Positions 27,141 through 59,294 of a stretch of DNA of 64,000 nucleotides are shown here, piece after piece. This DNA comes from an uncultured Anaerolineales bacterium. GTDB lineage: Bacteria > Chloroflexota > Anaerolineae > UBA2200. The position numbers and the translations under genes are program-made. The stretch lies in NCBI GenBank assembly GCA_964478075.1, contig CAYZGO010000007.1:22975-86974 (forward strand), in the 5' to 3' direction. The notes below the pieces were generated by a model. The model saw nothing but the letters and a program-made list of their open reading frames with translations. It did not search any database and had not been told where the DNA came from. Within the stretch, counting starts at the first letter, position 1. Every line of letters starts with the position of its first letter.

Positions 27141-28349
27141 GTGAGCACGCTGTCAGTGGTGATCCCAGCCTACAATGAAGAAGACGGCATTGCCGCCATC
27201 ATAGAGCGCGTGCTGGCGGTGCGGGCGCGGCTGGCTGCGGTCGGTATGGACCTGGAACTGATCGTCGTGGACGATGGCTCCAGCGACCGCACAGTGGAGA
27301 TCGTGCGTCGCTACGACGGTGTCACCCTGGTGTGCCACGAGCGCAACGCTGGCTACGGCGCTGCCCTCAAGACCGGCTTCGCCTCGGCGCACGGCGAGTG
27401 GCTGGGCTTTCTCGATGCCGACGGCACTTATCCGCCGGAACATTTCCCTCAACTGTGCCAGACGGCATTGGAGCAGAGCGGCGATCTTGTGATCGGCTCG
27501 CGTCGCTCAGGTGCCCAGAGCGAGATGCCCCTGCTGCGGCGGATAGGCAATCTCTTGTGGTCTAATCTGGTCAGCCTGGTGGGCAACCATCGGGTCAGTG
27601 ACCCGGCCAGCGGGATGCGGGTCATCCGGCGGACCGCATTGCCCCTGCTCTATCCCCTGCCCGATGGGTTGAACTTTACGCCGGTGATGAGCACGCGGGC
27701 CATTCACGAAGGGCTGAAGATGGTCGAGGTGCCCATCCCCTATCACGAGCGGATGGGTCGTTCCAAGCTGAACGTGGTGAGTGACGGCACCCGCTTCCTG
27801 CAATCCATCGTCTGGACAGCCCTCACCTACAACCCAGTGCGAATCTTCGGCGGCCTGGGGGTGCTCGCGGTCGTGGCCGCGCTGCTGGTGGGGGCCACCA
27901 TGCTTCTCTTTGGAGTGCGCGGCGGCGCACAGCCCTGGCCGGCTTTCCGATTGTACGTGATCTTGGTGCTGGTGGTCGGTGGGGTCAACCTCTTCTCGGT
28001 GGGCACGCTGTTCAACTACCTGGTTTCCCTGTTCCACAAGAGGCCGGTCCGCCAGGGACTGCTGGGCAAACCGCTGTTCAAGACGCCTGTGGAGCGAAAC
28101 TTTATCTGGATGGGGCTGGCAGCGGGTGCCCTTGGCGGGTTGTTCGCCCTGGCAGCCATACGGGAGGGGCTTACGCTGCCCCCTTCGCCTGCCTACCCCT
28201 TCTACCTGTTGACCAGCGGCATGTTGCTCCTGACCGGCTTGCAGCTCATCCTCTCGTGGATCCTGGTGCTGGTTCTGGCTGAGCTGAGCGAGCGCGAAGT
28301 GCAGGTGCAGGACGACATGGAAGGTACGGTGAGGCAAGGCGAGGGATGA
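27141..28349 (+). CDS. GT2 polyprenyl-phosphate sugar synthase-like glycosyltransferase (GtrB/ArnC/DPM1-like) with C-terminal TM helices
   Basis: GTG start. VVIPAYNEEDGI...VVDDGSSDRT...DADGTYPPE (DXD), then four C-terminal TM segments. Confidence 0.75.
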   Translation: MSTLSVVIPAYNEEDGIAAIIERVLAVRARLAAVGMDLELIVVDDGSSDRTVEIVRRYDGVTLVCHERNAGYGAALKTGFASAHGEWLGFLDADGTYPPEHFPQLCQTALEQSGDLVIGSRRSGAQSEMPLLRRIGNLLWSNLVSLVGNHRVSDPASGMRVIRRTALPLLYPLPDGLNFTPVMSTRAIHEGLKMVEVPIPYHERMGRSKLNVVSDGTRFLQSIVWTALTYNPVRIFGGLGVLAVVAALLVGATMLLFGVRGGAQPWPAFRLYVILVLVVGGVNLFSVGTLFNYLVSLFHKRPVRQGLLGKPLFKTPVERNFIWMGLAAGALGGLFALAAIREGLTLPPSPAYPFYLLTSGMLLLTGLQLILSWILVLVLAELSEREVQVQDDMEGTVRQGEG

Positions 28350-29971
28350 CCACGCGGACAAATCTGGAGCCCCAGCCCGGGTTCTCCGAGGTAGATGAGA
28401 TGCCTGGGGAGCCAGCAGCGGAAGCACGGCCAGCGGGGGCGGTGGATGTGCTGCTGGTCAATCCCCCGGCACCCGATGGCGGCATCTGGATCCGCAGTCA
28501 GCACCGCGTCGGCCGGCGCAGCCGGGAAGGAATGATCTGGCCACAGGTGTCGCTGGCGCAGATGGCGGCGCTGTTAGCTCCCGACTACTCCGTCGAGATC
28601 GTGGACGCCATCGCCGAGCGGACGAGCTGGCCGCAGTTCGAGGCGCTTCTGCGACAGAAGCACCCTCGCTATTACGTGACCCAGGTGACGGCGCCAACGC
28701 TGCAGAACGACATGTACGGCACCTTCCTGGCTCGCTCCCTGGGCGCTCGTACCATCGCCTTTGGCACGCACGTCACCCCCATGACGCGGGAGACAATGGG
28801 GCCTTATCCCAGCCTGGACTTTGTGCTGCGCGGTGAGCCAGAGTTGACACTGCTGGAGCTGCTGGGCACTCTCGAGGGGCAAGGCCTGGGGCGCTGGAGC
28901 AAACTGTTTGAGGGCGCGGATGCGGACTGGTCAGAGATTCCGCAGGACGGTCCAGGATCAGGAAGCCCGCGTCTGGAGCCCATCAAGGGGCTCGCCTGGA
29001 GGCGGGATGGCGAGATCGTCATCAACCAAGACCGGCCCTTGATCAAGAATCTGGACCATCTACCCCTGCCCCGCCATGACCTGCTGCCGCTGGATCGCTA
29101 TCGCGTCCCCATGATCAAGGGGCCGTACAGCTTTGTCGTCACGAGCCGCGGCTGTCCCGCTGGGTGCCGTTTCTGCATCAAGCACGTCAGCTACGGCCGC
29201 ACGGTGCGGGTCCGGTCGCCAGAGAACGTGATCGCCGAGCTGAGATTGCTGCGCGACCTGGGGCTGCGCAACGTCCACATGTATGCCGACCTGTTCACCG
29301 TGAATCGGGATCAGGTTATGGGCATTTGCGAGCTGATGCTGGAGGAGGAACTCGATTTCCGCTGGATGTGCAACAGCCGGGTGGACTTTGTGGACGAGGA
29401 GATGCTGCGCCTGATGGCGCGAGCCGGCTGCTGGATGATCGCGTGGGGCATCGAGTCGGCCAACGAAGGGATTCTGCGACGGGTGCGCAAGGGCTACCGG
29501 CCCGGGCGGGCAGCGCAGGCGCTAAGCTGGGCCAGGGCGGCGGGCATCAAGAATTGGGGCTATTTTATCATCGGTCTGCCGGGCGAGACTGACGAGACGG
29601 CGCAGCAGACCATCGAGCTGGCCAAGAGGCTGCCTCTCGACGTGGCCCTGTTCCACATCGCTGCGCCCTATCCAGGCACGCCCTTTTACCAGGAGGCGGT
29701 GGAGAAGGGCTGGTTCCGGGAGGGGACGCGCTGGGAAGATGTGGATATGGACCGCTCCACCGTGCTGGATTACCCAGAGATGCCGGGGGAGCGCATCGAG
29801 TACTGGGCACGGCGGGCGTTTCGGGAGTGGGCCTTCCGGCCGGGGCCGCTCTGGACGTACCTGACCAGCATGGCCAGTCCCGCGACGTTCCGCGCAGCAG
29901 TAAGGATCGGACTGGAGAGCCTGGGGTGGATAAGGGAGACGGAGGAACGGAGGCGGACAGACAGCAAGTGA
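28346..29971 (+). CDS. B12-binding-domain radical SAM protein (class B)
   Basis: The N-terminal cobalamin-binding domain starts at VDVLLVNPPAP. The radical SAM core has CxxxCxxC (SRGCPAGCRFC). 541 aa. ATGA overlap with the upstream gene. Confidence 0.8.
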   Translation: MTTRTNLEPQPGFSEVDEMPGEPAAEARPAGAVDVLLVNPPAPDGGIWIRSQHRVGRRSREGMIWPQVSLAQMAALLAPDYSVEIVDAIAERTSWPQFEALLRQKHPRYYVTQVTAPTLQNDMYGTFLARSLGARTIAFGTHVTPMTRETMGPYPSLDFVLRGEPELTLLELLGTLEGQGLGRWSKLFEGADADWSEIPQDGPGSGSPRLEPIKGLAWRRDGEIVINQDRPLIKNLDHLPLPRHDLLPLDRYRVPMIKGPYSFVVTSRGCPAGCRFCIKHVSYGRTVRVRSPENVIAELRLLRDLGLRNVHMYADLFTVNRDQVMGICELMLEEELDFRWMCNSRVDFVDEEMLRLMARAGCWMIAWGIESANEGILRRVRKGYRPGRAAQALSWARAAGIKNWGYFIIGLPGETDETAQQTIELAKRLPLDVALFHIAAPYPGTPFYQEAVEKGWFREGTRWEDVDMDRSTVLDYPEMPGERIEYWARRAFREWAFRPGPLWTYLTSMASPATFRAAVRIGLESLGWIRETEERRRTDSK

Positions 29972-30684
29972 CTGAGCCGCAACCATCACCGTGGCCGGAG
30001 TATCGCTTCCGTTTCCCCCGCTACAATCGTTGGCTGGCGAACCGCCTGCGGCCGTTCATGGGACAGCGGGTTCTGGAGGTGCAGTGCGGCCTGGGGCACA
30101 TGACGGGGCTGCTGCTGGATCGGGAGTTCCTGGTGGCCGTGGATTCTGTCGCTGAGCACGTGGCCGCTGTGCAGGCCAGGTACGGAGAGCGAGAGGATTT
30201 CGGCGCCGCAGTGCAGGACATGTGCAGCCCGGACGCGCTCAGCTTACGACAATATGGCATTGACACGATCCTGTGTGCCAATCTCCTGGAACATCTGGAC
30301 GACGACCGGGCTCTGGATACAATGGTGGCTATCCTGCCACCTGGAGGAAGGCTGATCACTTTGGTTGCTGCTTTTGAGAGCCTGTTCAATGCGCTGGACC
30401 GGGGTGCAGGGCATCTACGGCGCTATGACAAGGGAGCGTTCGTCGCCCAGCTTGCCAGGCACGAGCTGAGCGTGAACGAGGCTTTCTACGTCAACAGCCT
30501 GGGTCTGCTGGGGTGGTGGGTACGGGGCAGCCTGCTGAGACGGGAGATGCCCTCCGTGAGCCAGTTGCGTCTCTTCGACCGCCTGGTGCCGCTCTGGGGG
30601 GCGGTGGAGAGGCGGATTCCTCCGCCGTTTGGGTTATCCCTGGTCTGTGTGGCAGACAAGCGGCGCGCAGGCATTGGAGGGTAG
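29968..30684 (+). CDS. Class I SAM-dependent methyltransferase
   Basis: GTG start overlapping the upstream TGA. Motif I VLEVQCGLGHMTGLL, motif post-II ILPPGGRLI. Confidence 0.7.
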   Translation: MTEPQPSPWPEYRFRFPRYNRWLANRLRPFMGQRVLEVQCGLGHMTGLLLDREFLVAVDSVAEHVAAVQARYGEREDFGAAVQDMCSPDALSLRQYGIDTILCANLLEHLDDDRALDTMVAILPPGGRLITLVAAFESLFNALDRGAGHLRRYDKGAFVAQLARHELSVNEAFYVNSLGLLGWWVRGSLLRREMPSVSQLRLFDRLVPLWGAVERRIPPPFGLSLVCVADKRRAGIGG

Positions 30685-30687
30685 CGG

Positions 30688-31584
30688 ATGCGCATTCTGG
30701 TGACTGGAGCAACCGGATTCATCGGCAATCACCTGCTGCCAGCCCTGATCCGGGCTGGGCACGAGGTCGTGTGTCTGGTACGGCGCACCAGTGACCTCTC
30801 CGGACTGCAGGGCGTGGACGTCGAGCGGGTGCAAGGGGACATCACCGACAAGGACGCGCTGCTGGCCGCCCTGGACGGTGCAAACGCGGTGGTGCACCTG
30901 GCCGGGGTCAACGTGCCCGAGCTGGAGGCCTGCCGTCAGGTCAATGTAGAGGGCGTGCGGATGCTTATCAAGGCCTGCCGTGAGCGGGGCGTGCGGCGCG
31001 TGGTGGCCAACAGCACTGTCTCGGCCACGCGTGAGCACCTGGGAGCCTACGGGCTGACCAAGAGGCAAGGGGAGGACCTGTGGCAGGCCTCGGGGCTGGA
31101 TGTGACCATCTTGCGCTTGTCCCTGGTTTACGGCCCGGGGGCCAAAGGGATCTTCGCCAAGCTTCTCGGTTACGTGAAGACGCTTCCCGTGGTGCCGCTC
31201 ATCGGGCCTGGGACCTTTGAGGTGCAGCCAGTGTACGTGGGCGACGTGGTGGATGCCATCCTGAGGTGCCTCGAAAGCGGCAAGACAATCGGCAGGACCT
31301 ACGTCCTGGCCGGCCGGGAGGCCACCACGATGAACCAACTCATTGACGCGATGCTGGCCGAGCTGGGGAAACGGAAGCCGAAGCTGCACGTGCCAGTGCC
31401 TGTGGCTACGCTGATGGCCCGGGCGATGGCGCTGGTGCTGCCCAATCCCCCTGTGACGGTGGACAATATCCTGGGCATGAATCAGCCGACAGACTATGAC
31501 ATCTCGGCGGCGGAGCGGGATTTTGGGTTTGAGCCCATGCCGCTGCGAGAAGGGTTGCGAAGGACGGTGGGGGGTGGGCGATAA
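30688..31584 (+). CDS. NAD-dependent epimerase/dehydratase family protein (SDR)
   Basis: MRILVTGATGFIGNHL Rossmann motif and the YGLTK catalytic YxxxK. Confidence 0.8.
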   Translation: MRILVTGATGFIGNHLLPALIRAGHEVVCLVRRTSDLSGLQGVDVERVQGDITDKDALLAALDGANAVVHLAGVNVPELEACRQVNVEGVRMLIKACRERGVRRVVANSTVSATREHLGAYGLTKRQGEDLWQASGLDVTILRLSLVYGPGAKGIFAKLLGYVKTLPVVPLIGPGTFEVQPVYVGDVVDAILRCLESGKTIGRTYVLAGREATTMNQLIDAMLAELGKRKPKLHVPVPVATLMARAMALVLPNPPVTVDNILGMNQPTDYDISAAERDFGFEPMPLREGLRRTVGGGR

Positions 31585-31604
31585 TTGATAATCGATTATC
31601 GATT

Positions 31605-32693
31605 ATGACTTACCAGTCATCACTCATGAATCCACACCACTCACCCTTCAAACACCAACACATTGCCATCATCGGCCTCGGGCGGATGGGCATCGCTCAC
31701 GCAGCACTCCTGAACACCATCGCCAGGGCAAAGCTAGTGGGCTTTTGCGACCTGAGCCGGCGGTTGGGGCGGCAGGCGCGCGGGATGGGCTTTCGTGACG
31801 TGCCTTTCTACACCGATGTGGAGCGCTTGCTGGATGAGACTCAGCCGGATGGCGTTTTCATCTGCACGCCACCCCATACGCACCTGCCCATCGCCCGGCA
31901 GTGCGTGCCGCGGGTGGAGGGGGTCTTTGTGGAGAAGCCGCTGGCGCAGTCACTGGCGGCGGCCCAGGAGATGGTGGCGCTGGTGGAAGGACGGGGGCTG
32001 GTCCATGCCGTTGGCTATCACTATGCCTACGTTCCCATCTTCCAGCGGGCCGGGGAGCTGTTAGGCCAGGGGGTCATTGGCGGGCCAACGGAGGTACGTG
32101 CCTCCATGTTCCTCACCCAGGTGATGGGGCCCAAACGAGCGAGCTGGTGGTACGACCCGGCCAAAGCCGGGGGCGGGGTGGTGATCAGCATCACCTCACA
32201 CCTGCTGGCTTTGCTGCAGGAGTACTTTGGCGCGGTGGCCTGGGCGGAGGCACAAACCCGGCGGCTGCACTCCAAACTGGTCGAGGACGAAGCGACCATC
32301 CGGCTGGGCTTTGCCAGTGACCTGCAAGCAGTGGTGGAAACCTCGTGGAGCGTGCCCGGCTACGAGCGTTCGGCGATAGAGATTGGCATAGAGGGAGAGA
32401 ACGGCACGTTGACGGTGACCGATGGGGAGATTCGCCTCTCGCTGCAGCAGGCTACGAGCGGCTTCCCTGCAGGGGAAAGCCATGTCCCCGTCTCCGACGT
32501 ACCCGACCCGGCCGAGTTTGAGCTGGGTGGGCCGGGTTTCTGGGCCGAGGATGCGGACTTGATAGCGTGCCTGGGCGATGCAGCGGAGCGGGCCCCGCGC
32601 GTGACTTGGCACCAGGCATTGGCGACACAGGCCGTGCTGGACGCGGTGTACGGGTCGGCTGAGAGAGTCGAGAAGGTGGGGCTGGATGGCTGA
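31605..32693 (+). CDS. Gfo/Idh/MocA family oxidoreductase (sugar-nucleotide dehydrogenase-like, WbpB-like)
   Basis: N-terminal Rossmann HIAIIGLGRMG and the EKP motif FVEKPLA. 362 aa. Confidence 0.75.
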   Translation: MTYQSSLMNPHHSPFKHQHIAIIGLGRMGIAHAALLNTIARAKLVGFCDLSRRLGRQARGMGFRDVPFYTDVERLLDETQPDGVFICTPPHTHLPIARQCVPRVEGVFVEKPLAQSLAAAQEMVALVEGRGLVHAVGYHYAYVPIFQRAGELLGQGVIGGPTEVRASMFLTQVMGPKRASWWYDPAKAGGGVVISITSHLLALLQEYFGAVAWAEAQTRRLHSKLVEDEATIRLGFASDLQAVVETSWSVPGYERSAIEIGIEGENGTLTVTDGEIRLSLQQATSGFPAGESHVPVSDVPDPAEFELGGPGFWAEDADLIACLGDAAERAPRVTWHQALATQAVLDAVYGSAERVEKVGLDG

Positions 32694-33471
32694 GTTGGCC
32701 GGATGGATACTCAACGCCGACGGCGCTTCGACCGATGAACTGCGCCGCGGGCTAAGGACCGGGGCGGATGCAGTGATGGGGACATACCGCCCGGAGCTGT
32801 TAGGCGCACTGCGCCAGCTGCGCCGCGAGTTCGACTTTGAGGTCTACCCCGTGGTGCCCAACGCACCAGCCTACGTGCGAGACCTGGCCGACCTGGGGAT
32901 GATGGGAGCGGCTCTGAAGCGGCTCCGGCGGCTGCCGCCGGCCGGCTGGCTGCGACTGGCGGCTTATGGGCTGCGGAATGTGCGCGGCCTGCTGGCGCAG
33001 GACTTTGCGGGGATGCTGGGGGTGATGGTGCTGATGGAGTTGCCGATCTTCTCACCCTTCCAGCCACGGGTGATCTTCCTGCATGCCCAGATGACCGACC
33101 TGATGCTGGCCTGCGGCAACGCGGCCGGCTTCCGGGCCTTCGCCGATCTGGTGCGGGACTACGGGGCGGAACCAGGGCTGGAGACGCGCAACTTTGGACA
33201 CCTGGTGGCGAAGTTGGGCGAGTGGATGGTAGATGTGCCAGTAATCGCTGCGCCGTTCAACCTGAGGGGGTACGGGATGCGCCCGTCGCAGGCGGCATGC
33301 GAGGCGCTGCTGGATCAGGAGAGGACGACAGTGGCGGCGAAGGACGTGCTGGCGAGTGGGGCTGTCACGGGGAGTGAAGCGGCGGAGTACGTGAGAATGC
33401 ATTCCCTGAGTTCGATGGTGCTGGAGCCCGATAACGCGGCTGGTCTCGCCGCCGTCTGGCGGGGGGAGTAA
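32686..33471 (+). CDS. Hypothetical protein (261 aa), translationally coupled inside the glycan operon
   Basis: 8-nt overlap with the upstream stop. No motif I can name. High GC and uniform codon bias. Confidence 0.5.
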   Translation: MAELAGWILNADGASTDELRRGLRTGADAVMGTYRPELLGALRQLRREFDFEVYPVVPNAPAYVRDLADLGMMGAALKRLRRLPPAGWLRLAAYGLRNVRGLLAQDFAGMLGVMVLMELPIFSPFQPRVIFLHAQMTDLMLACGNAAGFRAFADLVRDYGAEPGLETRNFGHLVAKLGEWMVDVPVIAAPFNLRGYGMRPSQAACEALLDQERTTVAAKDVLASGAVTGSEAAEYVRMHSLSSMVLEPDNAAGLAAVWRGE

Positions 33472-33475
33472 CCGT

Positions 33476-34963: not shown

Positions 34964-35005
34964 TTCGTAGCGCAATAATGTAGAGACTATTACTGGGAGA
35001 GCAAG

Positions 35006-35647
35006 ATGCCTTCGATTTGGTATTACCATCCTCTTTTGTACGAATTTGGCGCAATCCTCCTCCAGGGGAATCGTTACAACAGAATGCTGTCCCGTGTTGC
35101 AGAGATGATAGGAAAGAACAAGTCAGTGCTTGATCTTGGGGCTGGGACGTGCAGACTTGCTTCAATGCTGGATAGCACGTGCACATATGAGGGCTGGGAC
35201 CTGAACCAAAGGTTCGTGAGTTACTATCAGCGTAAAGGGATAAACGTGAAGTTGATGGACGTGTTTCAGTATAGCTCATACCCGCCTGTTGATTGTATCG
35301 TGTTGTTGAATGTATTCCACCATGTAGCACCGAGGCAGTCAGTCCTGTTGAGACAATGCCTAGAGCACGCGGGAGAGAAGGTTATCGTCTGCGAGCTATT
35401 TCGTAATGTGGAATCTCGCCCAATATATTGGCGGCTGGTCAGGCTTCGCGAGATCCTGGGCTTGGAGAAGCTGATAGGAGATTGGGATGGTGTAAACAGG
35501 GAGTTCGATCGCTATCCGCTAATGAGCAAGGATGAACTCAGAGCTTTCTTGGATAAGCATGGACGGTGCAAAATCACCGAGCTAGATAACATGTCAATGC
35601 TGCTTGTAGTGTACCAAGTTGGCAGAGAAGGAGGGCAGTCGAAATGA
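35006..35647 (+). CDS. Class I SAM-dependent methyltransferase
   Basis: Motif I VLDLGAGTCRLASML. The region has lower GC. 213 aa. Confidence 0.65.
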   Translation: MPSIWYYHPLLYEFGAILLQGNRYNRMLSRVAEMIGKNKSVLDLGAGTCRLASMLDSTCTYEGWDLNQRFVSYYQRKGINVKLMDVFQYSSYPPVDCIVLLNVFHHVAPRQSVLLRQCLEHAGEKVIVCELFRNVESRPIYWRLVRLREILGLEKLIGDWDGVNREFDRYPLMSKDELRAFLDKHGRCKITELDNMSMLLVVYQVGREGGQSK

Positions 35648-49815: not shown

Positions 49816-49828
49816 CGGCCGGCGCTAA

Positions 49829-51969: not shown

Positions 51970-52078
51970 AGGGGGCAGTGTGATCAACGTCGCAGTAGTC
52001 GGCTGTGGCCATTGGATCCTTAAGCGGCTCGGTCACCCTTCGGTCATTTGTGCGCTCAGGGAACAACGGAGGCAGTGA

Positions 52079-53356
52079 GTGAAGCGTACCATAGACGATT
52101 TAGCGATTTTGGGCGGCACGCCCGCTTTCCAAGAGGAGCTGCATGTCGGCCGTCCCAACATCGGCGACCGCGAACGCCTGCTGGAGCGGATCAATGACAT
52201 CCTTGATCGGCGTTGGTTGACCAACAATGGCGTCTACGTCCAAGAGTTTGAGCGCAAGATCGCTGACATGCTCGGCGTCAAGCATTGCATTGCCATGTGC
52301 AACGGCACTGTGGCTTTGGAGATTGCCATTCGCGCTGCCGGACTTGCTGGCGAGGTTATCGTTCCTTCGTTCACCTTTGTCGCTACGGCTCACGCCCTGC
52401 AGTGGCAAGAGATCACCCCTGTCTTTTGCGACATAGACGCCAAGACGTACAATCTGGATCCCTGCCAGGTGGAGCACATGATTACGCCGCGCACCACGGG
52501 CATCATCGGCGTGCACGTGTTCGGCCGGCCTTGCGACGTCGATGCATTGGCGCACGTTGCCCGGCGCCACAACCTGAAGCTGTTGTTCGACGCCGCCCAT
52601 GCCTTCGCTTGCTCGCACAAAGGACAGATGATCGGCGGATTTGGTGATGCTGAAGTGTTCAGCTTTCATGCGACCAAGTTCTTCAACACGTTTGAAGGCG
52701 GAGCTGTCGTAACGAACGACGATGACTTGGCGACGAAGGTGCGGTTGATGAAGAACTTTGGGTTCTGCGGCTATGACAATGTCATCCACATCGGCACTAA
52801 TGGGAAGATGAGCGAAGTGTCGGCCGCTATGGGACTGACCTCACTCGAGAGCTTGGACGAGTTTGTAGCTGCCAATCATCGCAACTATAAGCAGTATCAA
52901 CGTCAACTCGCTGGCATTCCGGGTGTTCATATGGCACCCTACGATGAGAGTGAGCGGTGCAATTATCAGTACATCGTTGTGGAGATTGATGACACAGTCA
53001 CCAAGGTGAGCCGGGATGAGTTACTCGAAGTCCTGCACGCCGAGAACGTCCTGGCCCGCCGGTATTTCTATCCTGGCTGCCATCAGATGGAGCCGTATCG
53101 CTCTTGTTTCCCCCACGCTGGCCTACTGCTGCCCAATACGGAGCGCCTTGTTACACGAGTGATGAGTTTGCCTACGGGTACAGCAGTTGGGCAGGACGAG
53201 GTTAGTCAGATTTGCCAGATTCTGACGCTCGTTCTGGAGAACGGTCCGGCGGTGCATCAACGGATGAACATGTTAGCGCAGGCTGAGCCCTTGAGGCAGC
53301 CCATCTCGTTTGGAGCTTGCGACAATCCGGCACTTGGGCCGGAAACAGGTATCTGA
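52079..53356 (+). CDS. DegT/DnrJ/EryC1/StrS family PLP-dependent sugar aminotransferase
   Basis: PLP-lysine region SFHATKFFNTFEGGAVV and the N-terminal motif of the family. GTG start with RBS GGAGG. Confidence 0.85.
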   Translation: MKRTIDDLAILGGTPAFQEELHVGRPNIGDRERLLERINDILDRRWLTNNGVYVQEFERKIADMLGVKHCIAMCNGTVALEIAIRAAGLAGEVIVPSFTFVATAHALQWQEITPVFCDIDAKTYNLDPCQVEHMITPRTTGIIGVHVFGRPCDVDALAHVARRHNLKLLFDAAHAFACSHKGQMIGGFGDAEVFSFHATKFFNTFEGGAVVTNDDDLATKVRLMKNFGFCGYDNVIHIGTNGKMSEVSAAMGLTSLESLDEFVAANHRNYKQYQRQLAGIPGVHMAPYDESERCNYQYIVVEIDDTVTKVSRDELLEVLHAENVLARRYFYPGCHQMEPYRSCFPHAGLLLPNTERLVTRVMSLPTGTAVGQDEVSQICQILTLVLENGPAVHQRMNMLAQAEPLRQPISFGACDNPALGPETGI

Positions 53357-53374
53357 GGCCGCGGAGGCGAGTCC

Positions 53375-54031
53375 GTGACTGCCACACGAAAACTGGTCAT
53401 CTGGGGCGCTTCAGGCCATGCTTTGGTTGTTGCAGACATCGTTCGTTTGCGGGCAGAGTACGAGCTTGTTGGGTTCTTGGATGATGTGAATCCTGATCGC
53501 ACCAGCGCCGCATTCTGCGGAAGCCGGATCCTTGGGGGCCAAGAACAGCTGGTTCATCTTCGGGAACAGGGAGTTGATTACATAATCTTCGGATTCGGCG
53601 ACTGTAGTGCAAGGTTAGAGTTATCCAAACTGGTGCGAGAGTTGGGGTTCTCACTGGCGACAGCCATTCATCCCAAGGCAACTGTGGCAGCTGATGTATC
53701 AGTCGGGGCAGGGACTGTGATCATGGCAGGGAGTGTTGTCAATCCTGGGGCACAGATCGGAGAGAATGTTATCATCAACACTTGTGCAAGCGTTGATCAT
53801 GAGTGTGTTATAGAGGACGGGGTTCACATTGGTCCAGGTGTTCGGTTGGGGGGGCACGTCAGGGTGGGACGAGCAGCTTGGATAGGGATTGGGGTGACGA
53901 TTAAGGATGCCGTGCACATAGGTCCAGGTTCAGTGATAGGTGCTGGTGCAGTTGTGTTGAGTGATATCCCTGGTGGCGTTGTGGCCCATGGAACGCCAGC
54001 CAGAGTAGTGCGAGAAATCTCGTGCGAATGA
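53375..54031 (+). CDS. NeuD/PglD/WbpD-family sugar N-acetyltransferase (hexapeptide)
   Basis: The N-terminal domain KLVIWGASGHALVVADIVRL...YELVGFLDD is typical of PglD/NeuD. A C-terminal left-handed beta-helix follows. Confidence 0.75.
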   Translation: MTATRKLVIWGASGHALVVADIVRLRAEYELVGFLDDVNPDRTSAAFCGSRILGGQEQLVHLREQGVDYIIFGFGDCSARLELSKLVRELGFSLATAIHPKATVAADVSVGAGTVIMAGSVVNPGAQIGENVIINTCASVDHECVIEDGVHIGPGVRLGGHVRVGRAAWIGIGVTIKDAVHIGPGSVIGAGAVVLSDIPGGVVAHGTPARVVREISCE

Positions 54032-54055
54032 CAACCGTTGATTGGGGGAGCATCA

Positions 54056-55063
54056 ATGACCACAGCCTCTGATTCAGTGGTAGACTATTCAATTGTTATC
54101 CCTGTCTACTTCAATGAGGGGACCTTGACAGAAACCATGTCGTCTATCAAGGACGATGTCCTTGCCCGCAATCCCAATCTTCGTTGCGAGGTCATTTTCG
54201 TTGACGATGGCTCGGGTGATGGCTCGTTGGAGGAGCTGCTCCGACTTTACGAGGAGGATCCGGGGATCGTAAAGGTTATCAAGCTAACGCGAAACTTTGG
54301 GCAGGTTAATGCCCTACTGGCTGGCTTCTCTCACGCCAAGGGAGAGTGTGCTATAGCAATGTCAGCAGACGGCCAAGATCCTGCAGTTCTGATCAATGAC
54401 ATGCTCAGGGCGTATTTTGAGGAACAATGCGAGATTGTGGTCTGCGCCCGGCAGGGGCGTGACGAGTCATGGTATAGAGTTCTGACTTCAAGACTGTTCT
54501 ATGCACTGGTTAGGAAGCTGAGCTTCCCTAATATGCCTGCGGGAGGGTTTGATTTTGTCCTGCTTGGGCGACGGGCCCTGGACGTTCTGCTGAGCAGTCG
54601 AGAGGCGTATCCCTTTCTTCAGGGGCAGATCTTGTGGACTGGGTTCAAAACGAAATTCCTTAAGTATCACAGACTGGAGCGAAAAGCTGGTCAGTCGCGC
54701 TGGACTTTTGGCAAGAAGATCACTTATTTGATTGATGGTGTAATGAGCTACTCATTTCTTCCCATACGCTTGATGTCAGCAATGGGAATCCTGTTTGCGC
54801 TATTAGGACTTCTCTACGCTGTAATCATATTCGTCCTCAAAGTAGCTGGGGGCATACCAATAGAGGGCTGGGCACCGCTGATGATTGTAGTGCTCATAAT
54901 GGGGGGCATTCAGATGCTCATGTTGGGTGTCATTGGCGAATATCAGTGGCGGACGCTGGGCGAAGCGCGCCGCAGACCGCGCTACATCATTGATGAAGTG
55001 TTCGGCGAGGACGCACAGGAGCCGGCGGAACGTGATGAAGGTTCAACAAGCGACAGCGTGTAG
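54056..55063 (+). CDS. GT2 polyprenyl-phosphate sugar synthase-like glycosyltransferase (GtrB/ArnC-like) with C-terminal TM helices
   Basis: YSIVIPVYFNEGTL...FVDDGSGDGS...MSADGQDP, then two TM helices. The in-frame ATG at 54056 with a GGGGGAG RBS is preferred over the TTG at 54038. Confidence 0.75.
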   Translation: MTTASDSVVDYSIVIPVYFNEGTLTETMSSIKDDVLARNPNLRCEVIFVDDGSGDGSLEELLRLYEEDPGIVKVIKLTRNFGQVNALLAGFSHAKGECAIAMSADGQDPAVLINDMLRAYFEEQCEIVVCARQGRDESWYRVLTSRLFYALVRKLSFPNMPAGGFDFVLLGRRALDVLLSSREAYPFLQGQILWTGFKTKFLKYHRLERKAGQSRWTFGKKITYLIDGVMSYSFLPIRLMSAMGILFALLGLLYAVIIFVLKVAGGIPIEGWAPLMIVVLIMGGIQMLMLGVIGEYQWRTLGEARRRPRYIIDEVFGEDAQEPAERDEGSTSDSV

Positions 55064-55188
55064 TGCTATAGCGACAACCGTCCGCAGTGGCGCCCGCGCG
55101 TGTTGCTGTGTACAAACCGCCGCGAAGGCCAGGCGCATGACCGATAGGCGATGCTCTATGCCCCTTGGCTGCAAAGGGTGAGGTGTGA

Positions 55189-57549
55189 GTGAAACGCAAC
55201 ACAGGCAGGCTCCTCGACTTGATCATCAAACACCAGCTTGTGCTGCTTGCCGCCGCTGTCCCCGTGCTGGTCTTGCCGCGTTCCTACCTCTGGAAGTGGC
55301 AGCAGGGCCTTACAACCTATGCGCCCCTGGGGGACGAGGCGGCAGCGGGCCTGAGTCCCCTGACCTGGGCTGCGTTGGGGCTCGTCGCCCTGCCCTGGCT
55401 GCTGCGCCTGGTCCGCCAGCGCCGGTTCAGTCAGCGCACCCCCCTCGACTGGCCCATCGCGCTGACCCTGCTCAGTGCAGCCATCGGGATCTGGCCTTCG
55501 GTGGACCGCCTCTTCAGCGTGGAGCGCTTCCTGGGGCTGGTGGCAGGTGTGGCGCTGTGCTATGGCCTGGTCAACAGCATCAACACCGAAAGGCGACTGC
55601 AGGGGATGGTGGCGCTGTTCCTGGCCGGCGGGGTGGCGCTGGCCCTGCTGGGCTTCGCCCTGACCGACTGGACGGCGGTGAACTCACCGCTGGCGGCTGT
55701 CCTGGCACCGGTCTATGCGATGCTGGCCGGGCTGCCCAAACTGGGGGCCAAGCGACTCAACGACAGCCTCGTGGCCAGCACGCTGATCATCTTTGTGCCG
55801 CTGGCGCTGTGCCTGCTCCTGGCGCCCGTCCGGCGGCGCATCAAGCCGTTCCTGGCGCTGGTGGCTCTGCTGGCCGCTGGCTACACCGTTTTGGCTTGGT
55901 CCCGCGGCGAGCTGCTGGCGCTGGGACTGACGCTGCTGCTCCTGCCCGCCTTAGTCAGGCGCCGCTGGCGCATCCTGCTGCTGGCCATCGCTGGGGCAGC
56001 CGTTGTCGCTCTCGTCATCCTGTTGGCTGTGCAACCCGCTAACCTTTCGGTTAGCAGCCTGCTAGCCCAACTGCGTCCCAGTCGTTGGCAGGTCTGGACG
56101 CGGGCCCTGCTCATGATGCGCGACTATCCCTTGACCGGCATCGGGTTGGACACCTTCCGCATCATCGCCCAGAACGAGTATCCTTACTTCAACTATGCCT
56201 TTAACCAGAGCGAGCATGCCCACAACGTCTTCCTGCAGGCGGGCGTGGATCAGGGAATCCTGGGCCTTATCGCCCTCCTTTGGCTGGTCGTCGCCTTCTT
56301 TCGCATGGTTGCTCGGATCTCAAGTCCCAGGCTCGAGACGCTGGGCCAGTCGGACGATCAGTCATCAGTTATCAGCTATCAGTTATTAGTCATTGGCCTC
56401 TCCGCCGGCTTTACCGCCTTTCTCATCAGCGGCCTGTTCGATCTGCTGGGCGGTCCCCGCGCAGGCCTGGTCCTGTGGGCGCTGTTGGGGTTAGCGGCTG
56501 CAGCGTGCAAACTGTGCCCTGCGCCTGCCGTGAGCCCGTCGAAGGCCATCACGGCTCACGCTTCACGTTTCACGTTTCACGTCTCACGCCTGACGTCTCA
56601 CGCTTCACTCCTAGCGGCAGTCATCGTCCTGGTGCTCGTCGTCGCATTCCTGACCTATCCCATCGTCGCCAGTGCCTACTACGACAATCTCGGGTGCGTG
56701 GAGCGGGGGCGGGGCTGGCTGTGGCGGGAAGCGAGTGAAGAGCAGCGGCGCGCTTGTGCGCAGTCGGCGCTGGCCCACTTCCAGCAGGCGCTGGCGCTGT
56801 GGCCGGGCAACGCCGCTGCCCAACGCCACCTGGGAACCCTGTGCTACCACGCCCAACACCCGGAGGAAGCGGTCGTCCGGCTGCTGGGGATGCCTGGCGC
56901 TGAATACCATCCGGGCTTCCTGGCCTTCTACGATGAGGTGGCAAAGGCCGTGGGTGCCGAAGCTGCTTTGCCTCACCTGGAGCAGGCTGTGGCTCTGGCC
57001 CCCTACGATTTTCTGGCCCATTTGTTCCTGGCCGAGGCTTATCGGGCTGATGGGCGGGTGGCGGAGGCGGTGGATCAGTACGCGGCGGCCGGCATCGAAC
57101 TCGACAGGGTGCTCTGGGATGCGGGGCGAAGGTGCAGGGGCGATGCTTCAACCGAGGAGGCCATGGTGCACTACGAGATCGCCGCGCGCCTCTTTCCTGC
57201 GTCGCCCCTGCCTGGCTACGGCCGGGGAGACTGCCTGCGGGGGCGCGGCTCATACGACGAAGCGGTGGCCGCCTATCAGCAGGCCATCGCTCTGGACAAT
57301 GACAACTCCCTCCGCAAGCACCAGACCCTGCGCTGGATATGCAGCTACCAGCAGGAGTGGGATCGCGCCATCGCCGCCTACGAGCGGGCGGTCCGGCTGG
57401 ACCCCAATAATGCGTCCTACCAGGTGAGGCTGGGCGATCTGTACCGGGATGCCGGCCGGCCTGGTGACGCCAGGGCTGCCTACCAAGCTGCTCTGACCTT
57501 GCGTCCAGATGACGAGTACATCAAGCAGCAGCTTGCTCAGTTGCCGTGA
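55189..57549 (+). CDS. O-antigen ligase/Wzy-like membrane domain fused to a C-terminal TPR-repeat domain
   Basis: 786 aa. N-terminal 12 TM helices with a ligase-like loop (GIGLDTFRIIAQNEY...HAHNVFLQAGVDQG), and a C-terminal region of about 320 aa of TPR repeats (AYQQAIALDNDN, AYERAVRLDPNN, AYQAALTLRPDD). Confidence 0.7.
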   Translation: MKRNTGRLLDLIIKHQLVLLAAAVPVLVLPRSYLWKWQQGLTTYAPLGDEAAAGLSPLTWAALGLVALPWLLRLVRQRRFSQRTPLDWPIALTLLSAAIGIWPSVDRLFSVERFLGLVAGVALCYGLVNSINTERRLQGMVALFLAGGVALALLGFALTDWTAVNSPLAAVLAPVYAMLAGLPKLGAKRLNDSLVASTLIIFVPLALCLLLAPVRRRIKPFLALVALLAAGYTVLAWSRGELLALGLTLLLLPALVRRRWRILLLAIAGAAVVALVILLAVQPANLSVSSLLAQLRPSRWQVWTRALLMMRDYPLTGIGLDTFRIIAQNEYPYFNYAFNQSEHAHNVFLQAGVDQGILGLIALLWLVVAFFRMVARISSPRLETLGQSDDQSSVISYQLLVIGLSAGFTAFLISGLFDLLGGPRAGLVLWALLGLAAAACKLCPAPAVSPSKAITAHASRFTFHVSRLTSHASLLAAVIVLVLVVAFLTYPIVASAYYDNLGCVERGRGWLWREASEEQRRACAQSALAHFQQALALWPGNAAAQRHLGTLCYHAQHPEEAVVRLLGMPGAEYHPGFLAFYDEVAKAVGAEAALPHLEQAVALAPYDFLAHLFLAEAYRADGRVAEAVDQYAAAGIELDRVLWDAGRRCRGDASTEEAMVHYEIAARLFPASPLPGYGRGDCLRGRGSYDEAVAAYQQAIALDNDNSLRKHQTLRWICSYQQEWDRAIAAYERAVRLDPNNASYQVRLGDLYRDAGRPGDARAAYQAALTLRPDDEYIKQQLAQLP

Positions 57550-57649
57550 GAGCCGGAGCTGTTCCCCTCTCCCGAGCTTGGGAGAGGGGCCAGGGGTGAG
57601 GGCCACAGCGGCAAACTCCCCCCAGGTATGCAGCAACCCAAAAACCATC

Positions 57650-58021
57650 ATGCGTGTGCTATTCATCGTCCCTTACGTCCCGAACCTGATACGGGTGCGG
57701 CCCTACAACCTGATCCGGCACCTGGCGGCCCGCGGGCACGAGGTCACGGTTCTGACCTTGTGGTCCAGCGAAGAGGAGCGCGCCGACGGCGAGGCGTTGA
57801 AGCAGCACTGCCACAGCGTCGTCGCCCTGCCGCTGCCCCGCTGGCGCTCCCTGTGGAACTGCCGGCCGGCTTTGCGGACACACGTGGGGCTTCGGGCGAT
57901 CTATTGCCACGCACCAGAGCTTGCCGCCCTGCTCGGGCTCTTTCGCCCACGTACTTCTCCGTGCGCTTCGAGCCCCTTGACTCAGAGAGAGCAAAGGACT
58001 GAGTACCATGGTGATTGCTAA
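57650..58021 (+). pseudogene. Truncated 5' duplicate of the GT4 gene at 59291
   Basis: The first 214 nt (57650-57863) are about 93% identical to 59291-59504 (MRVLFIVPYVPNLIRVRPYNLIRHLAARGHEVTVLTLWSSEEERAD...). The sequence then diverges and runs into the next gene. Confidence 0.65.
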
Positions 58022-59294
58022 GCTTATCTCCTCTATCGCATGTCTAGCAGCCCGCAGACAAGTAATAGTTCTGTTTTGCGCAGCAGCTGTGATCAGGTTG
58101 GCCTATGTAGCTACGCTCCCAAGCAGTCTGCGCTTTGATGAGGCCTACTACCAGGATATGGCAGATCACTTGTTGGCCGGAGACGGTTTTACCTTTTCAT
58201 TCAGTGCGTGGCACACAGGTCTCCCCTGTCGACCCACCTCAGTTCAGGAACCACTGTTTCCAATGCTCCTAGCCGGGGTGTACCATGTATTTGGAATCCA
58301 CAATTATCTTGCGGCTCGCGTCGTTCAATGCATCATCAGCTCGTTTACAGTGATATGTGTCTATGCCATCAGTCTCTTGGCCTTTGATCGACCCAAAGCG
58401 CTACTAGCAGGCTCGTTCGCGGCAATTTACCCGCCTTTGGTATTCTTCAACGGCTACCTTATGACTGAGACGCTCTATATCGCGTTTCTGGCGGGCATGA
58501 TCCTATTTGCGGCTCTGACTGCCAACTCTCAATCAAGGTTGTCTGCTTGCGCCACGGGAGTGCTGTTCGGCCTGGCTTGCTTGACGCGGGGTCTTATCCA
58601 AGCCTTCTTGCCCGGGTTGTTGGTCTGGCTGTGGCTTGCGCTACGTTGCCAGTGGCGTGTTCGGATAGGTACATGCTTACTTGTCATGATAGGGGGCGTC
58701 TTGGCCATCGCCCCTTGGACAATCAGGAATTATGCGGTGCACAAGGCCTTCATTCCCGTCACAACCAAGGGGGGCTGGGTATTGTATTTCTATACCTATC
58801 CCGCTCCTAATCTGAATTTCAATGATAGATGGGACGAGATCCGTATCCCTAGTATGCCCTCTTCTTACACAGAGATACAGCGCAACCAGGAATTCACTCG
58901 CTTGGCAATGAAAAACATCAGAAACAATCCGAGACTGATGGTGCGCTTTGCTGTGGCCAAGCTGGCTGACTTCTGGAATCCGCTCCTGAAGGGTTGGCAT
59001 CCCGTCTTGTCCCTTCTAAACATATGTACGTTCGGCATCGCCACGGCCTTTGCCGCCTCTCGTCTGATACCTGCCTTGCGCCTGCGTCAAGTAGCGCCGA
59101 TTCCACTGCTTCTGTGGTTGATAATTGGGTACTATGCAGCGATGGCCACGCTGTTTACGGGAGGTGGAAAGGCACGTCTCCCTGTTGAGCCCTTCTTGAT
59201 CGTACTTGCAAGTGATGGGGTAGTCGCTTTGCTGCGGAAGAGTGGTTGGCGTTGCAACAGCTTGTCTCGGCATGCCGGGGTGGGCTCGCAATGA
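58008..59294 (+). CDS. GT-C fold membrane glycosyltransferase (GT39/ArnT-like)
   Basis: 428 aa and multi-TM. The first loop LRFDEAYYQDMADHL carries the DE motif of the family. Low GC. Confidence 0.65.
   Translation: MVIAKLISSIACLAARRQVIVLFCAAAVIRLAYVATLPSSLRFDEAYYQDMADHLLAGDGFTFSFSAWHTGLPCRPTSVQEPLFPMLLAGVYHVFGIHNYLAARVVQCIISSFTVICVYAISLLAFDRPKALLAGSFAAIYPPLVFFNGYLMTETLYIAFLAGMILFAALTANSQSRLSACATGVLFGLACLTRGLIQAFLPGLLVWLWLALRCQWRVRIGTCLLVMIGGVLAIAPWTIRNYAVHKAFIPVTTKGGWVLYFYTYPAPNLNFNDRWDEIRIPSMPSSYTEIQRNQEFTRLAMKNIRNNPRLMVRFAVAKLADFWNPLLKGWHPVLSLLNICTFGIATAFAASRLIPALRLRQVAPIPLLLWLIIGYYAAMATLFTGGGKARLPVEPFLIVLASDGVVALLRKSGWRCNSLSRHAGVGSQ

Follow-up and report, generated by a model that had tools for sequence, protein, structure and literature searches.

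Characterised GT-C glycosyltransferases of the PMT_2 type take polyprenyl-phosphate monosaccharides as donors at the outer face of the membrane, and the PMT_2 family also includes ArnT-type lipid and glycan transferases. The general mechanism, in which a synthase makes a lipid-phosphate sugar that is flipped and then used by a GT-C enzyme, is established (PMC11127046), and such three-component systems, which glycosylate Wzx/Wzy- and ABC-type glycans extracytoplasmically, are widespread, multi-GT-C loci included (PMC11127046; PMC8035078). Because three-component systems are well described, the system reported here belongs to a known kind, and the initial annotation, which had called its scheme more elaborate than typical EPS loci, overstated its novelty. 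The system lies in the window, by which we mean the whole stretch of 64,000 nucleotides analysed, from an uncultured Anaerolineales bacterium; all features below are given in window positions and are on the + strand.

The glycan-assembly operon (26285..62046, about 36 kb) occupies a single strand downstream of a NusG/RfaH/UpxY-like antiterminator gene (25341..25970; Pfam NusG; NCBIfam RfaH at 92 bits and UpxY at 74 bits, both below cutoff). The Wzx/Wzy context attributed to the cluster proved real. It comprises a MOP/Wzx-family flippase (37256..38905; Pfam Polysacc_synt_3 at 72 bits, Polysacc_synt, and MatE), a Wzy protein with a Wzy_C domain (43352..44692), a second Wzy_C (O-antigen ligase/polymerase-like) membrane protein with a C-terminal TPR (55189..57549), which is part of the conserved core, and an initiating polyprenyl glycosylphosphotransferase (PGT) of the WbaP/EPS_sugtrans type (60574..62046; TIGR03025, 397 bits against a cutoff of 295.55). 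The first Wzy gene sits in a nine-gene cytoplasmic assembly block (40092..49815) with three GT4 genes (40092..41375, 42154..43359, and 47640..48839), three methyltransferase genes (41372..42127, 46828..47640, and 48862..49815), and two GT2 genes, GT2s1 (44652..45623) and GT2s2 (45598..46701). No hydrophobic segments were predicted in GT2s1 and only one in GT2s2 (residues 317-335); both differ from GtrB/ArnC-type enzymes in lacking the paired C-terminal transmembrane (TM) helices. Profile matches further identified two SAM methyltransferases (29827..30684, with Pfam methyltransferase domains and a true start probably near 29968, and 35006..35647), an SDR epimerase/reductase (30688..31584; best NCBIfam match HpnA-like), a GFO/IDH/MocA sugar oxidoreductase (31605..32693), a CDP-alcohol phosphatidyltransferase-family membrane protein that may serve phospho-alcohol decoration (38943..39848), and a fourth GT4 (59246..60577). 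A search of the operon for GtrA, SMR, and EamA flippases found none, leaving the MOP/Wzx protein as its sole flippase candidate; a third component is therefore either lacking or shared. That one MOP protein has to cover both repeat-unit and lipid-monosaccharide export counts against the scheme we propose below.

An open reading frame check recovered all six glycosyltransferase genes of the initial annotation, two GT2s and four polytopic proteins, where it had placed them, with a single deviation, an alternative TTG start at 54038 rather than the ATG at 54056 for GT2b. Sequence and architecture confirm both GT2s as predicted polyisoprenyl-phosphate glycosyltransferases, as does the modelled fold for GT2a, and both align along their full length with ArnC, GtrB, and DPMS, including the TM helices, in agreement with their earlier description as polyprenyl-phosphate sugar synthases. 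GT2a (27141..28349, 402 aa; Pfam Glycos_transf_2, 112 bits) has a DPMS-type architecture with four predicted C-terminal hydrophobic helices (about 241-259, 273-291, 322-340, and 354-372). It matched ArnC over residues 3-299, spanning both TM helices (phmmer, 1e-21), as well as DPMS 5mlz (1e-16) and GtrB (1e-15), and the DAD motif of ArnC aligns with D92-A-D94. The best 25 PDB matches of its AF2 model (pLDDT 72; Foldseek) were all ArnC, GtrB, or DPMS. GT2b (54038..55063, 341 aa) is of the GtrB/ArnC type, carries two C-terminal TM helices, and matched GtrB 5ekp over residues 6-325 (4e-60).

All four polytopic proteins, three in the cluster and one outside, were likewise confirmed as GT-C enzymes of the PMT_2 type, none falling into a non-glycosyltransferase family, by Pfam or family-wide matches together with a model of GTC1. 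The sequence of GTC1 itself (35644..37290) had no significant Pfam match; 9 of its 15 homologues matched PMT_2, and the best 44 Foldseek matches of its AlphaFold model (pLDDT 87) were GT-C structures only. It has about 9-11 TM helices, with Asp38 in the loop after TM1. GTC0 (4095..6011), 20 kb upstream of the operon, is related to the GTC1 family (hhalign, 97.9%), and 25 of 29 members of its own family matched PMT_2. GTC2 (50263..51969) narrowly passed the gathering score for TMEM260-like proteins (26.0 against 24.2 bits), with PMT_2 and PMT slightly below cutoff, and reached only 70% against the GTC1 family (hhalign). GTC3 (58008..59294) matched PMT_2 at 42.1 bits (gathering score 26.1). The cluster thus holds three GT-C genes to two lipid-sugar synthases, a mismatch that also counts against the proposed scheme.

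The claim that GT2 and GT-C enzymes pair here for additional extracytoplasmic glycosylation is supported in part: conserved synteny backs it for GTC2 and GT2b, but not for GT2a, a member of a separate triad. Judged by sequence and gene order, GTC2, a DegT/DesI-like NDP-4-keto-6-deoxyhexose aminotransferase (52079..53356; Pfam DegT, 378 bits; NCBIfam DesI, 558.9 bits against a cutoff of 650), a NeuD/PglB/VioB-family N-acetyltransferase (53375..54031; TIGR03570, 213.5 bits against 160.8), and GT2b form a conserved Arn/Gtr-like cassette. Two other metagenomic loci repeat the order GTC2-DegT-(N-acyl enzyme)-GT2b at 60-88% identity, each time together with GT4, Wzy, and PGT genes. A formyltransferase takes the place of the acetyltransferase in L089 (GTC2 82%, DegT 88%, and GT2b 82% identical), and MaoC, a hexapeptide transferase, and an EamA-like small membrane protein take it in L090 (60%, 77%, and 70%). 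Since only the N-acylating enzyme is swapped and the rest is kept, the cassette probably exports an N-acylated 4-amino-4,6-dideoxyhexose to the outer side of the membrane. No dTDP-glucose 4,6-dehydratase to supply DegT was identified in the window, a further point against the proposed scheme. Just upstream lies a pseudogene scar (49955..50266), the truncated N-terminal remnant of a GTC2-like gene (BLASTP, 37% over 71 aa, E 2e-8), whose YTRDPID motif corresponds to YITRDPID of GTC2.

Recombination has also marked GTC3, a low-GC insert between the two copies of a direct repeat of 257 nt (57650-57906 and 59291-59547, 89% identity). A GT4 5' fragment before it (57509..58021) duplicates the beginning of the GT4 gene at 59246 (86% amino acid identity over 92 residues). 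No lipid-sugar synthase gene adjoins GTC3, and of 80 loci with GTC3-like genes only 2 have a polyisoprenyl-phosphate glycosyltransferase gene nearby. GC content is 51-53% and GC3 57-60% in GT2b and the three in-cluster GT-C genes, against 61-65% and 77-81% in the core genes. The core is conserved and rich in GC, and these low-GC cassettes entered it by recombination.

GT2a, by its conservation, is not specific to the decoration machinery of this cluster; its gene takes the central place in a triad conserved across Chloroflexota in varied neighbourhoods. Upstream is a hexapeptide-repeat (LbH) acyl/acetyltransferase gene (26285..27067; Pfam Hexapep; sugar O-acetyltransferase-like NCBIfam matches, all below cutoff), and downstream, with its start overlapping the GT2a stop by 4 nt, is a gene for an HpnJ/AprD4-like radical SAM enzyme (28346..29971; Pfam Radical_SAM; NCBIfam HpnJ, 212.8 bits against a cutoff of 577.6; PDB AprD4 6fd2, 1.6e-31). 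At least 576 GT2a relatives occur in genome contigs (49-72% identity). Among 83 GT2a loci, the hexapeptide transferase homologue lies upstream in 67 (median identity 64%) and the radical SAM gene downstream in 61; genes for Wzy_C-TPR (19-32 loci), BNR proteins (10-14 loci), and PGTs recur 3' of the triad. Only about 5 of the 83 have a GT-C gene less than 10 kb from GT2a, which we estimate, with GT-C gene number and genome size assumed, to be no more than chance, so a pairing of GT2a with a GT-C is suggested only by local adjacency. Between the triad and GTC1 lie genes for a protein with no Pfam or NCBIfam match (32686..33471) and a BNR/sialidase-like beta-propeller protein (33476..34963; Pfam BNR_4 and BNR_2), which is probably extracytoplasmic because it has hydrophobic segments at both termini. 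BNR genes adjoin GTC1 homologues in three other loci (L085, L086, and L087), in the first two of which an 82% identical homologue of 32686..33471 lies upstream.

We consider it fairly probable that the locus, of mosaic origin, combines Wzx/Wzy assembly with three-component outer-face sugar addition by a GTC2-GT2b cassette and carries GT2a as a separate module. The WbaP-type enzyme would initiate a repeat unit on polyprenyl phosphate, the four GT4s and the two GT2s without a GtrB-type TM pair would elongate it, and the methyltransferases and the CDP-alcohol transferase would modify it before export by the MOP flippase and polymerisation or ligation by Wzy or Wzy_C-TPR. For the outer-face route, a membrane-anchored GT2 would load one sugar onto polyprenyl phosphate, the lipid-sugar would be flipped, and a GT-C would move the sugar to the exported acceptor. 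By the logic of the Arn pathway, the cassette would transaminate and then N-acetylate an NDP-4-keto-6-deoxyhexose; the product, probably a sugar of the Qui4NAc or Fuc4NAc type, would be put on polyprenyl phosphate by GT2b and delivered outside by GTC2. GT2a would be a second lipid-sugar synthase, whose product may supply GTC1 and/or GTC3. The analysis establishes the family and fold membership of the enzymes, their architecture, the synteny, and the mosaic composition of the locus; sugar identity, donor-acceptor pairing, and the polymer as acceptor are inferred.

For GT2a, there is a slightly less than even chance that it is no donor synthase for these GT-Cs, the triad being an independent housekeeping pathway of Chloroflexota, for example one that, AglJ-like, starts or modifies a conserved glycolipid or glycan of the envelope on polyprenyl phosphate, with variable EPS genes inserted alongside. 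The wide retention of the triad, the chance-level frequency of GT-C genes near it, and its GC content, unlike that of the GT-C genes, argue for this, as does the best NCBIfam match of GT2a, AglJ, an initiating dolichyl-phosphate hexosyltransferase. However, GTC3 homologues lie immediately 3' of GT2a-radical SAM and in the same orientation at three loci, L045, L081 (Roseiflexus), and L166, radical SAM paralogues and BNR proteins co-occur with GTC1 homologues, and the triad and GTC1 share one unbroken gene string in the window. That the GT-C genes are non-functional, decaying recombination passengers is very improbable: pseudogene scars adjoin GTC2 and GTC3, but each of the three in-cluster GT-C genes is an open frame of full length that encodes the conserved Asp of the loop, and the GTC2 cassette is kept at 60-82% identity elsewhere.

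The acceptor and the donor can each be read differently. It is rather unlikely that the GT-Cs use lipid-monosaccharides as protein O-glycosyltransferases, like actinobacterial and eukaryotic PMT or TMEM260, acting not on polysaccharide but on proteins of the surface or S-layer or anchored in the membrane, of which the probably exported BNR protein would be an example. All four fall in PMT_2/PMT/TMEM260-like families, whose name-giving members O-mannosylate proteins, and BNR genes repeatedly adjoin GTC1 homologues; streptococcal GtrB-type systems that glycosylate Ser/Thr-rich protein regions offer a precedent (PMC12041528). Yet PMT_2 also holds ArnT-type transferases, the genes lie within a polysaccharide operon, L089 and L090 have GT4, Wzy, and PGT genes along with the Arn-like cassette, and no Ser/Thr-rich acceptor candidate was identified. 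We regard as improbable that at least one GT-C takes polyprenyl-diphosphate-linked oligosaccharides, like STT3/PglB oligosaccharyltransferases, ligases, or polymerases, instead of monophosphate-linked monosaccharides, in which case the number of GT2 synthases would be irrelevant to it. The surplus of GT-Cs over synthases would fit, and in Foldseek the GTC1 model scored best against STT3, AglB, and PglB (E 4e-9 to 3e-6), with ArnT slightly behind; at the sequence level, however, the GT-C proteins and families match PMT_2, PMT, and TMEM260 and not STT3, neither a WWDYG-type motif nor an STT3 Pfam match was seen in them, and the two Wzy_C proteins already fill the polymerase and ligase roles.

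On our preferred reading of Wzx/Wzy assembly with outer-face sugar addition, the decoration encoded here is a known kind of bacterial glycan modification, ordinary though unusually dense, and the uncharacterised GT2-radical SAM triad is the more novel lead.

The plus-strand ORFs between positions 26285 and 62046 form a string nearly without gaps, preceded by a NusG/RfaH/UpxY-like gene (25341..25970), and this operon is a Wzx/Wzy-type glycan locus. It encodes, all on the plus strand, an initiating phosphoglycosyl transferase (PGT) of the WbaP/EPS type (60574..62046; TIGR03025, 397 versus a cutoff of 295.55), a MOP/Wzx flippase (37256..38905; Polysacc_synt_3, 72 versus 23), a Wzy of the Wzy_C family (43352..44692) and a Wzy_C protein with a C-terminal TPR (Wzy_C-TPR, 55189..57549); the Wzy_C scores of two operon proteins were 41.6 and 75.6 against a cutoff of 31.7. 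Four GT4s, two further GT2s, six methyltransferases and a CDP-alcohol transferase were also present, and no chain-length regulator was found within the window. Outside the operon, two minus-strand stretches (15460..20495 and 22704..24860) look like a candidate anti-phage defense island, with a RecQ-family helicase that has N-terminal TPR and HRDC (PADLOC DpdF, 518 bits; PsyrT, 358 bits), a DuOB-domain protein (PDC-M45A, 38 bits), a DUF488 protein (PDC-M45B, 184 bits) and a UvrD/GajB-like helicase nearby. Also on the minus strand, a LarA-like ORF (9777..10853) covers only positions 67 to 200 of the 204-position Lar_N domain model and may be N-terminally truncated or misstarted.

The initial annotation had described two of the operon's GT2s as polyprenyl-phosphate sugar synthase-like, and this assignment was borne out by the presence of C-terminal TM anchors and by full-length similarity to GtrB and ArnC. 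All the ORFs that it named were present as stated, position 54056, its start for the second GT2, being an internal ATG of that gene. The two proteins, GT2a (27141..28349, 402 residues) and GT2b (54038..55063, 341 residues), begin with a PF00535 (Glycos_transf_2) domain (112 and 88 bits, respectively) and end in four and two TM helices, as judged by hydropathy; their alignments with ArnC and GtrB extend through the TM helices. GT2b matched GtrB (5ekp) with an E value of 4e-60 over residues 6 to 325, essentially its whole length, and also matched ArnC (3e-39) and the PgfS model (202 bits). The alignment of GT2a with ArnC (E value, 1e-21) ran from the catalytic domain across the juxtamembrane stretch and on through both TM helices. 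Its AlphaFold model was of moderate confidence (pLDDT, only 72); the best 25 Foldseek PDB matches of this model were all ArnC, GtrB or archaeal dolichyl-phosphate-mannose synthase-type (DPMS) structures, and the four-TM DPMS 5mlz aligned with GT2a over 397 columns. The DAD motif of ArnC aligned with D92-A-D94 of GT2a, and GT2b, read by eye, has the motif S-A-D111-G-Q-D-P, in which the second Asp and the Gln are kept. Since neither protein reached any NCBIfam equivalog cutoff, we consider them family members and not orthologues of named enzymes. GT2a and GT2b are thus members of the polyisoprenyl-phosphate glycosyltransferases (PI-P GTs), predicted from their sequences to load polyprenyl monophosphate with one sugar taken from an NDP-sugar. 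The GtrB-type C-terminal TM pair was absent from both other operon GT2s, one of which (44652..45623) has no hydrophobic segment and the other (45598..46701) a single one, at residues 317 to 335.

Next, we looked into the polytopic proteins that had been proposed as GT-C transferases, namely, GTC1 (35644..37290), GTC2 (50263..51969) and GTC3 (58008..59294) in the operon and GTC0 (4095..6011) outside it. Each has 8 to 12 hydrophobic segments, the expectation for GT-Cs being about 8 to 13 TM helices. The Pfam model PMT_2 matched GTC3 (42.1 bits versus a cutoff of 26.1), and the TMEM260-like model narrowly matched GTC2 (26.0 versus 24.2 bits), with PMT_2 and PMT falling just under cutoff over the same residues. 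GTC1 had no significant Pfam match itself. Because direct searches of PDB sequences with GTC1, GTC2, GTC3 or the GTC1 family profile returned no GT-C entries, we turned to a comparison of folds and to Pfam scans of whole families. PMT_2 matched 9 of 15 GTC1 homologues and 25 of 29 sampled members of the GTC0 family (4,018 representatives at an E value of ≤0.001), so GTC1 and GTC0 are placed by curated GT-C models only via their families. GTC1, the one protein whose GT-C fold was checked by a structure model (pLDDT, 87; pTM, 0.87), was predicted to be all-helical with a C-terminal alpha/beta domain, and its first 44 Foldseek PDB matches were GT-C enzymes only, including STT3, AglB, PglB, ArnT, ALG, AftD, DPY19, Pmt, PimE and Emb (E values down to 4e-9; TM-scores of 0.5 to 0.6). 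Aligned by hhalign to the GTC1 family, GTC3 reached 97%, GTC0 97.9% (family to family) and GTC2, more weakly, 70%. Just after TM1, at the place of the acidic residue that GT-Cs conserve in their first extracytoplasmic loop, acidic residues align with one another (GTC1 D38, GTC2 D48, GTC3 D43-E44 and GTC0 D40-E41), D40 being invariant across the GTC0 family. The proposal of GT-Cs therefore held, on Pfam and family matches and on the fold of GTC1, and none of the proteins was reclassified into a non-GT family. A protein identical to GTC1 is also encoded in the MAG assembly GCA_034430235.1. An extreme array of one synthase and many GT-Cs was observed in a metagenomic locus (L088, 5719..20228), where eight polytopic genes lie in tandem behind a GT2 with a GT2_TM_C domain. 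They comprise one GT87, one PMT_2-like gene and six that Pfam did not match, and at least five of them have GTC1-like N-terminal similarity.

The base composition of the operon is split. The core genes, that is, those for the hexapeptide transferase (26285..27067), GT2a, a radical SAM enzyme (28346..29971), Wzy_C-TPR, the last GT4 and the PGT, have a GC content of 61 to 65% and a GC3 of 77 to 81%, whereas GTC1, GTC2, GTC3 and GT2b have values of 51 to 53% and 57 to 60%, respectively. A 257-nt direct repeat with 89% identity (57650-57906 and 59291-59547) brackets the low-GC gene for GTC3; its upstream copy duplicates the beginning of the downstream GT4 gene (59246) and leaves a 170-residue GT4 fragment (86% amino acid identity over 92 residues), so that the repeat has the look of a scar left by recombination or insertion. 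A 103-codon ORF (49955..50266) immediately before the intact GTC2 gene resembles the GTC2 N terminus, including the YxTRDPID loop motif, and is what remains of a truncated GT-C paralogue. Given the GC split and the two scars, the GT-C genes and GT2b look like cassettes that recombined into a conserved locus.

One such cassette (50263..55063) consists of GTC2, a DegT aminotransferase, a NeuD/PglB/VioB acetyltransferase and GT2b. Close homologues of GTC2 numbered only two in a collection of 5.8 billion proteins (82% and 60% identity), and both of their loci retain the cassette. In the first (L089), the order is GTC2 (82%), DegT (88%), a Formyl_trans_N enzyme, GT2b (82%) and then a Wzy_C-TPR gene; in the second (L090), it is GTC2 (60%), DegT (77%), an EamA-like membrane protein of 125 residues, a MaoC dehydratase, a hexapeptide transferase and GT2b (70%). 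This synteny supports GT2b and GTC2 as a genetically linked pair of putative synthase and GT-C. The window acetyltransferase passed the NeuD/PglB/VioB cutoff (213.5 versus 160.8), and the aminotransferase came near the DesI model (558.9 versus a cutoff of 650), DesI acting on dTDP-4-keto-6-deoxyglucose. GT2b would accordingly be the enzyme that loads an N-acetylated 4-amino-4,6-dideoxyhexose onto polyprenyl phosphate, and GTC2 would then move this sugar to an acceptor at the outer face. The position of the N-acetyltransferase is exchanged in the relatives, for a formyltransferase in L089 (13130..13840) and for the substitutes spanning 13066..14549 in L090, which implies that strains switch the N-acyl group while keeping the amino sugar that bears it; the relatives' sugar would be an N-formylated or otherwise acylated version.

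The genomic surroundings of GT2a are of another kind. A genome scan recovered GT2a relatives (49 to 72% identity) in at least 576 genome stretches, almost all from Chloroflexota, including Anaerolineae, Thermoflexia, Ardenticatenaceae, Caldilineales, Roseiflexus and Chloroflexus. Among 83 fetched loci, many of them on truncated contigs, a homologue of the hexapeptide transferase lay upstream in 67 and a homologue of the radical SAM enzyme downstream in 61; the window copy of the radical SAM gene starts with a 4-nt overlap onto the stop of GT2a. The gene following this triad is often Wzy_C-TPR (clustering gave 32 such loci, and phmmer with the window protein gave 19). BNR proteins (one of roughly 900 residues often follows), a PGT and SIS, GHMP kinase and HAD genes recur nearby, and the last three, which precede the triad in some lineages, appear to be heptose-pathway-like.

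A GT-C gene was found within 10 kb of GT2a in only about 5 of the 83 loci, and on this ground we dropped the idea of an obligatorily linked GT-C for GT2a; the frequency is no more than chance if each genome holds, as we assumed, some tens of PMT_2-type genes. In the reverse test, we took 80 metagenomic loci that surround distant relatives of GTC3; only 2 contained a full-length PI-P GT, both being GT2a orthologues, a result that is suggestive but not significant. A GTC3-like gene directly follows the GT2a and radical SAM genes on the same strand in three loci (L045, L081 from Roseiflexus and the metagenomic L166). Close GTC1 homologues adjoin BNR proteins, radical SAM paralogues and a homologue (82%) of the window gene 32686..33471, and the neighborhoods of two more distant homologues (P0009 and P0011) gave no information. 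In one locus (L085, 3..1687), the 82% homologue of 32686..33471 is apparently split, its N-terminal part being fused into a 492-residue ORF and its C-terminal 62 residues lying about 1.1 kb on, in a 55-residue ORF. Of the synthase and GT-C pairings initially suggested, that of GT2b with GTC2 is therefore backed by synteny, whereas that of GT2a is better accounted for by the membership of GT2a in a conserved Chloroflexota module.

What the triad does may be approached through its radical SAM enzyme, whose best family match was HpnJ (TIGR03471) and whose best solved relative was AprD4 (1.6e-31). HpnJ and AprD4 both remodel amino-sugar rings, with the sugar attached to a larger molecule. Membership of the triad in the hopanoid system HpnI/HpnJ/HpnK was rejected, as the HpnJ score of 212.8 bits was far short of the cutoff of 577.6 and GT2a is not HpnI-like. 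The triad occurs throughout the Chloroflexota, whereas squalene-hopene cyclase is conserved there only at low levels (10.1101/2025.07.29.667474). We found no literature on the GT2 and radical SAM pair or the triad in Chloroflexota, and the preprint on hopanoids does not treat the triad. Rather unlikely in our judgment, and put forward tentatively, is that the triad is an undescribed pathway in which the radical SAM enzyme acts on a sugar carried by a lipid phosphate, remodeling it before its use outside the membrane for a phylum-wide envelope glycoconjugate. Such remodeling would be a deoxygenation, a ring contraction or a C-methylation, and the consumers of the product would be GTC1 and/or GTC3-type GT-Cs or the Wzy_C-TPR protein.

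Either synthase product would have to reach the outer face. A search of the operon for a GtrA-, SMR- or EamA-type flippase, taken as any ORF of 75 to 220 residues with at least three TM helices, found none, and the EamA-like gene of L090 had no homologue in the window. In the Citrobacter system, a MATE-family protein flips a lipid-monosaccharide (PMC11127046). By analogy, the MOP protein adjoining GTC1 (37256..38905) could flip lipid-monosaccharides, in which case its Wzx role would be shared or ceded.

We then compared the locus with known systems. The Gtr systems, which glucosylate O-antigens in Shigella and Salmonella, consist of the flippase GtrA, the Und-P-Glc synthase GtrB and a GtrC-type GT-C, with CsbB/GtcA/YfhO and GacI/GacL as Gram-positive analogues. 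The window resembles them in that GT2b is a full-length GtrB homologue, in that its Wzx/Wzy-type locus also holds GT-C genes and in the predicted logic of a lipid-monophosphate sugar donor with transfer at the outer face (PMC11127046, PMC8035078); it differs in having no GtrA/GtcA flippase gene in the operon, in GT-Cs that are PMT_2/TMEM260-like and not of the GtrC or YfhO families, in a sugar that is probably an N-acetylated amino-dideoxyhexose and not glucose, in its Chloroflexota host and in the three GT-Cs per operon. The Arn system, which adds aminoarabinose to lipid A, comprises the aminotransferase ArnB, the formyltransferase ArnA, ArnC, ArnD, ArnE/F and ArnT, and the cassette is like it in order and chemistry (an aminotransferase, an N-acyl or N-formyl transferase and an ArnC-like GT2, with a GT-C), including the Formyl_trans_N enzyme and the EamA-like small membrane protein of its two relatives. 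By analogy, the conserved aminotransferase, lipid-sugar synthase and GT-C with an exchangeable N-acylating enzyme appear to follow the logic of ArnB/ArnA/ArnC/ArnT. Orthology to Arn was nevertheless rejected, every score being far below the equivalog cutoff (ArnC model, 149 versus 529; ArnB, 215 versus 631; ArnT, 17 for GTC3 versus 567); the window also lacks an ArnD deformylase, its DesI-like aminotransferase points to a 6-deoxyhexose and not to arabinose, and lipid A is an unlikely acceptor in this lineage.

Systems that pair a dolichyl- or polyprenyl-phosphate mannose synthase with PMT for protein O-mannosylation (Ppm1/Pmt of Actinobacteria; archaeal DPMS) share with the window the four-TM DPMS-type architecture of GT2a and GT-Cs in the PMT_2 superfamily, but the window shows no sign of mannose or protein acceptors, and the radical SAM enzyme coupled to GT2a has no counterpart there. 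With the polyprenyl-phosphoribose/GT136 systems and mycobacterial DPA/Emb-Aft arabinosylation (Kelly et al. 2024, PMC11127046), the window has in common tailoring enzymes between lipid-sugar synthesis and GT-C transfer, multi-GT-C loci and a MATE/MOP-family protein that can act as a lipid-monosaccharide flippase; its synthase, however, is a GT2 using an NDP-sugar and not a PRPP-dependent phosphoribosyltransferase, and the GT-C families differ. The view that the scheme is more elaborate than typical loci was overstated: extracytoplasmic glycosylation by three components, in which one enzyme makes a lipid-monophosphate sugar, a flippase turns it over and a GT-C transfers the sugar at the outer face, is well established. 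It is known from O-antigens of the Wzx/Wzy and ABC types, from wall polymers of Gram-positive bacteria, from membrane proteins of streptococci and from mycobacterial arabinan, and several GT-Cs in one locus have been noted (PMC11127046, PMC8035078, PMC12041528). We conclude that the window locus belongs to a kind of system already known, here in a phylum that has been little studied.

Chloroflexota abound in sludge, sediments and hot springs, and to our knowledge their envelope glycans are almost unstudied. These results suggest that they share the logic of outer-face decoration by lipid-monophosphate sugars with O-antigens, teichoic acids and mycobacterial arabinan, and that the decoration genes travel as cassettes whose N-acyl group is swapped between strains, a pattern consistent with diversifying selection on surface antigens, e.g., by phage. 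The cassette offers a defined candidate set (aminotransferase, acyltransferase, GT2 and GT-C) for making polyprenyl-P-Qui4NAc-type donors, and the conserved GT2 and radical SAM triad gives a testable starting point in the search for a core component of the Chloroflexota envelope.
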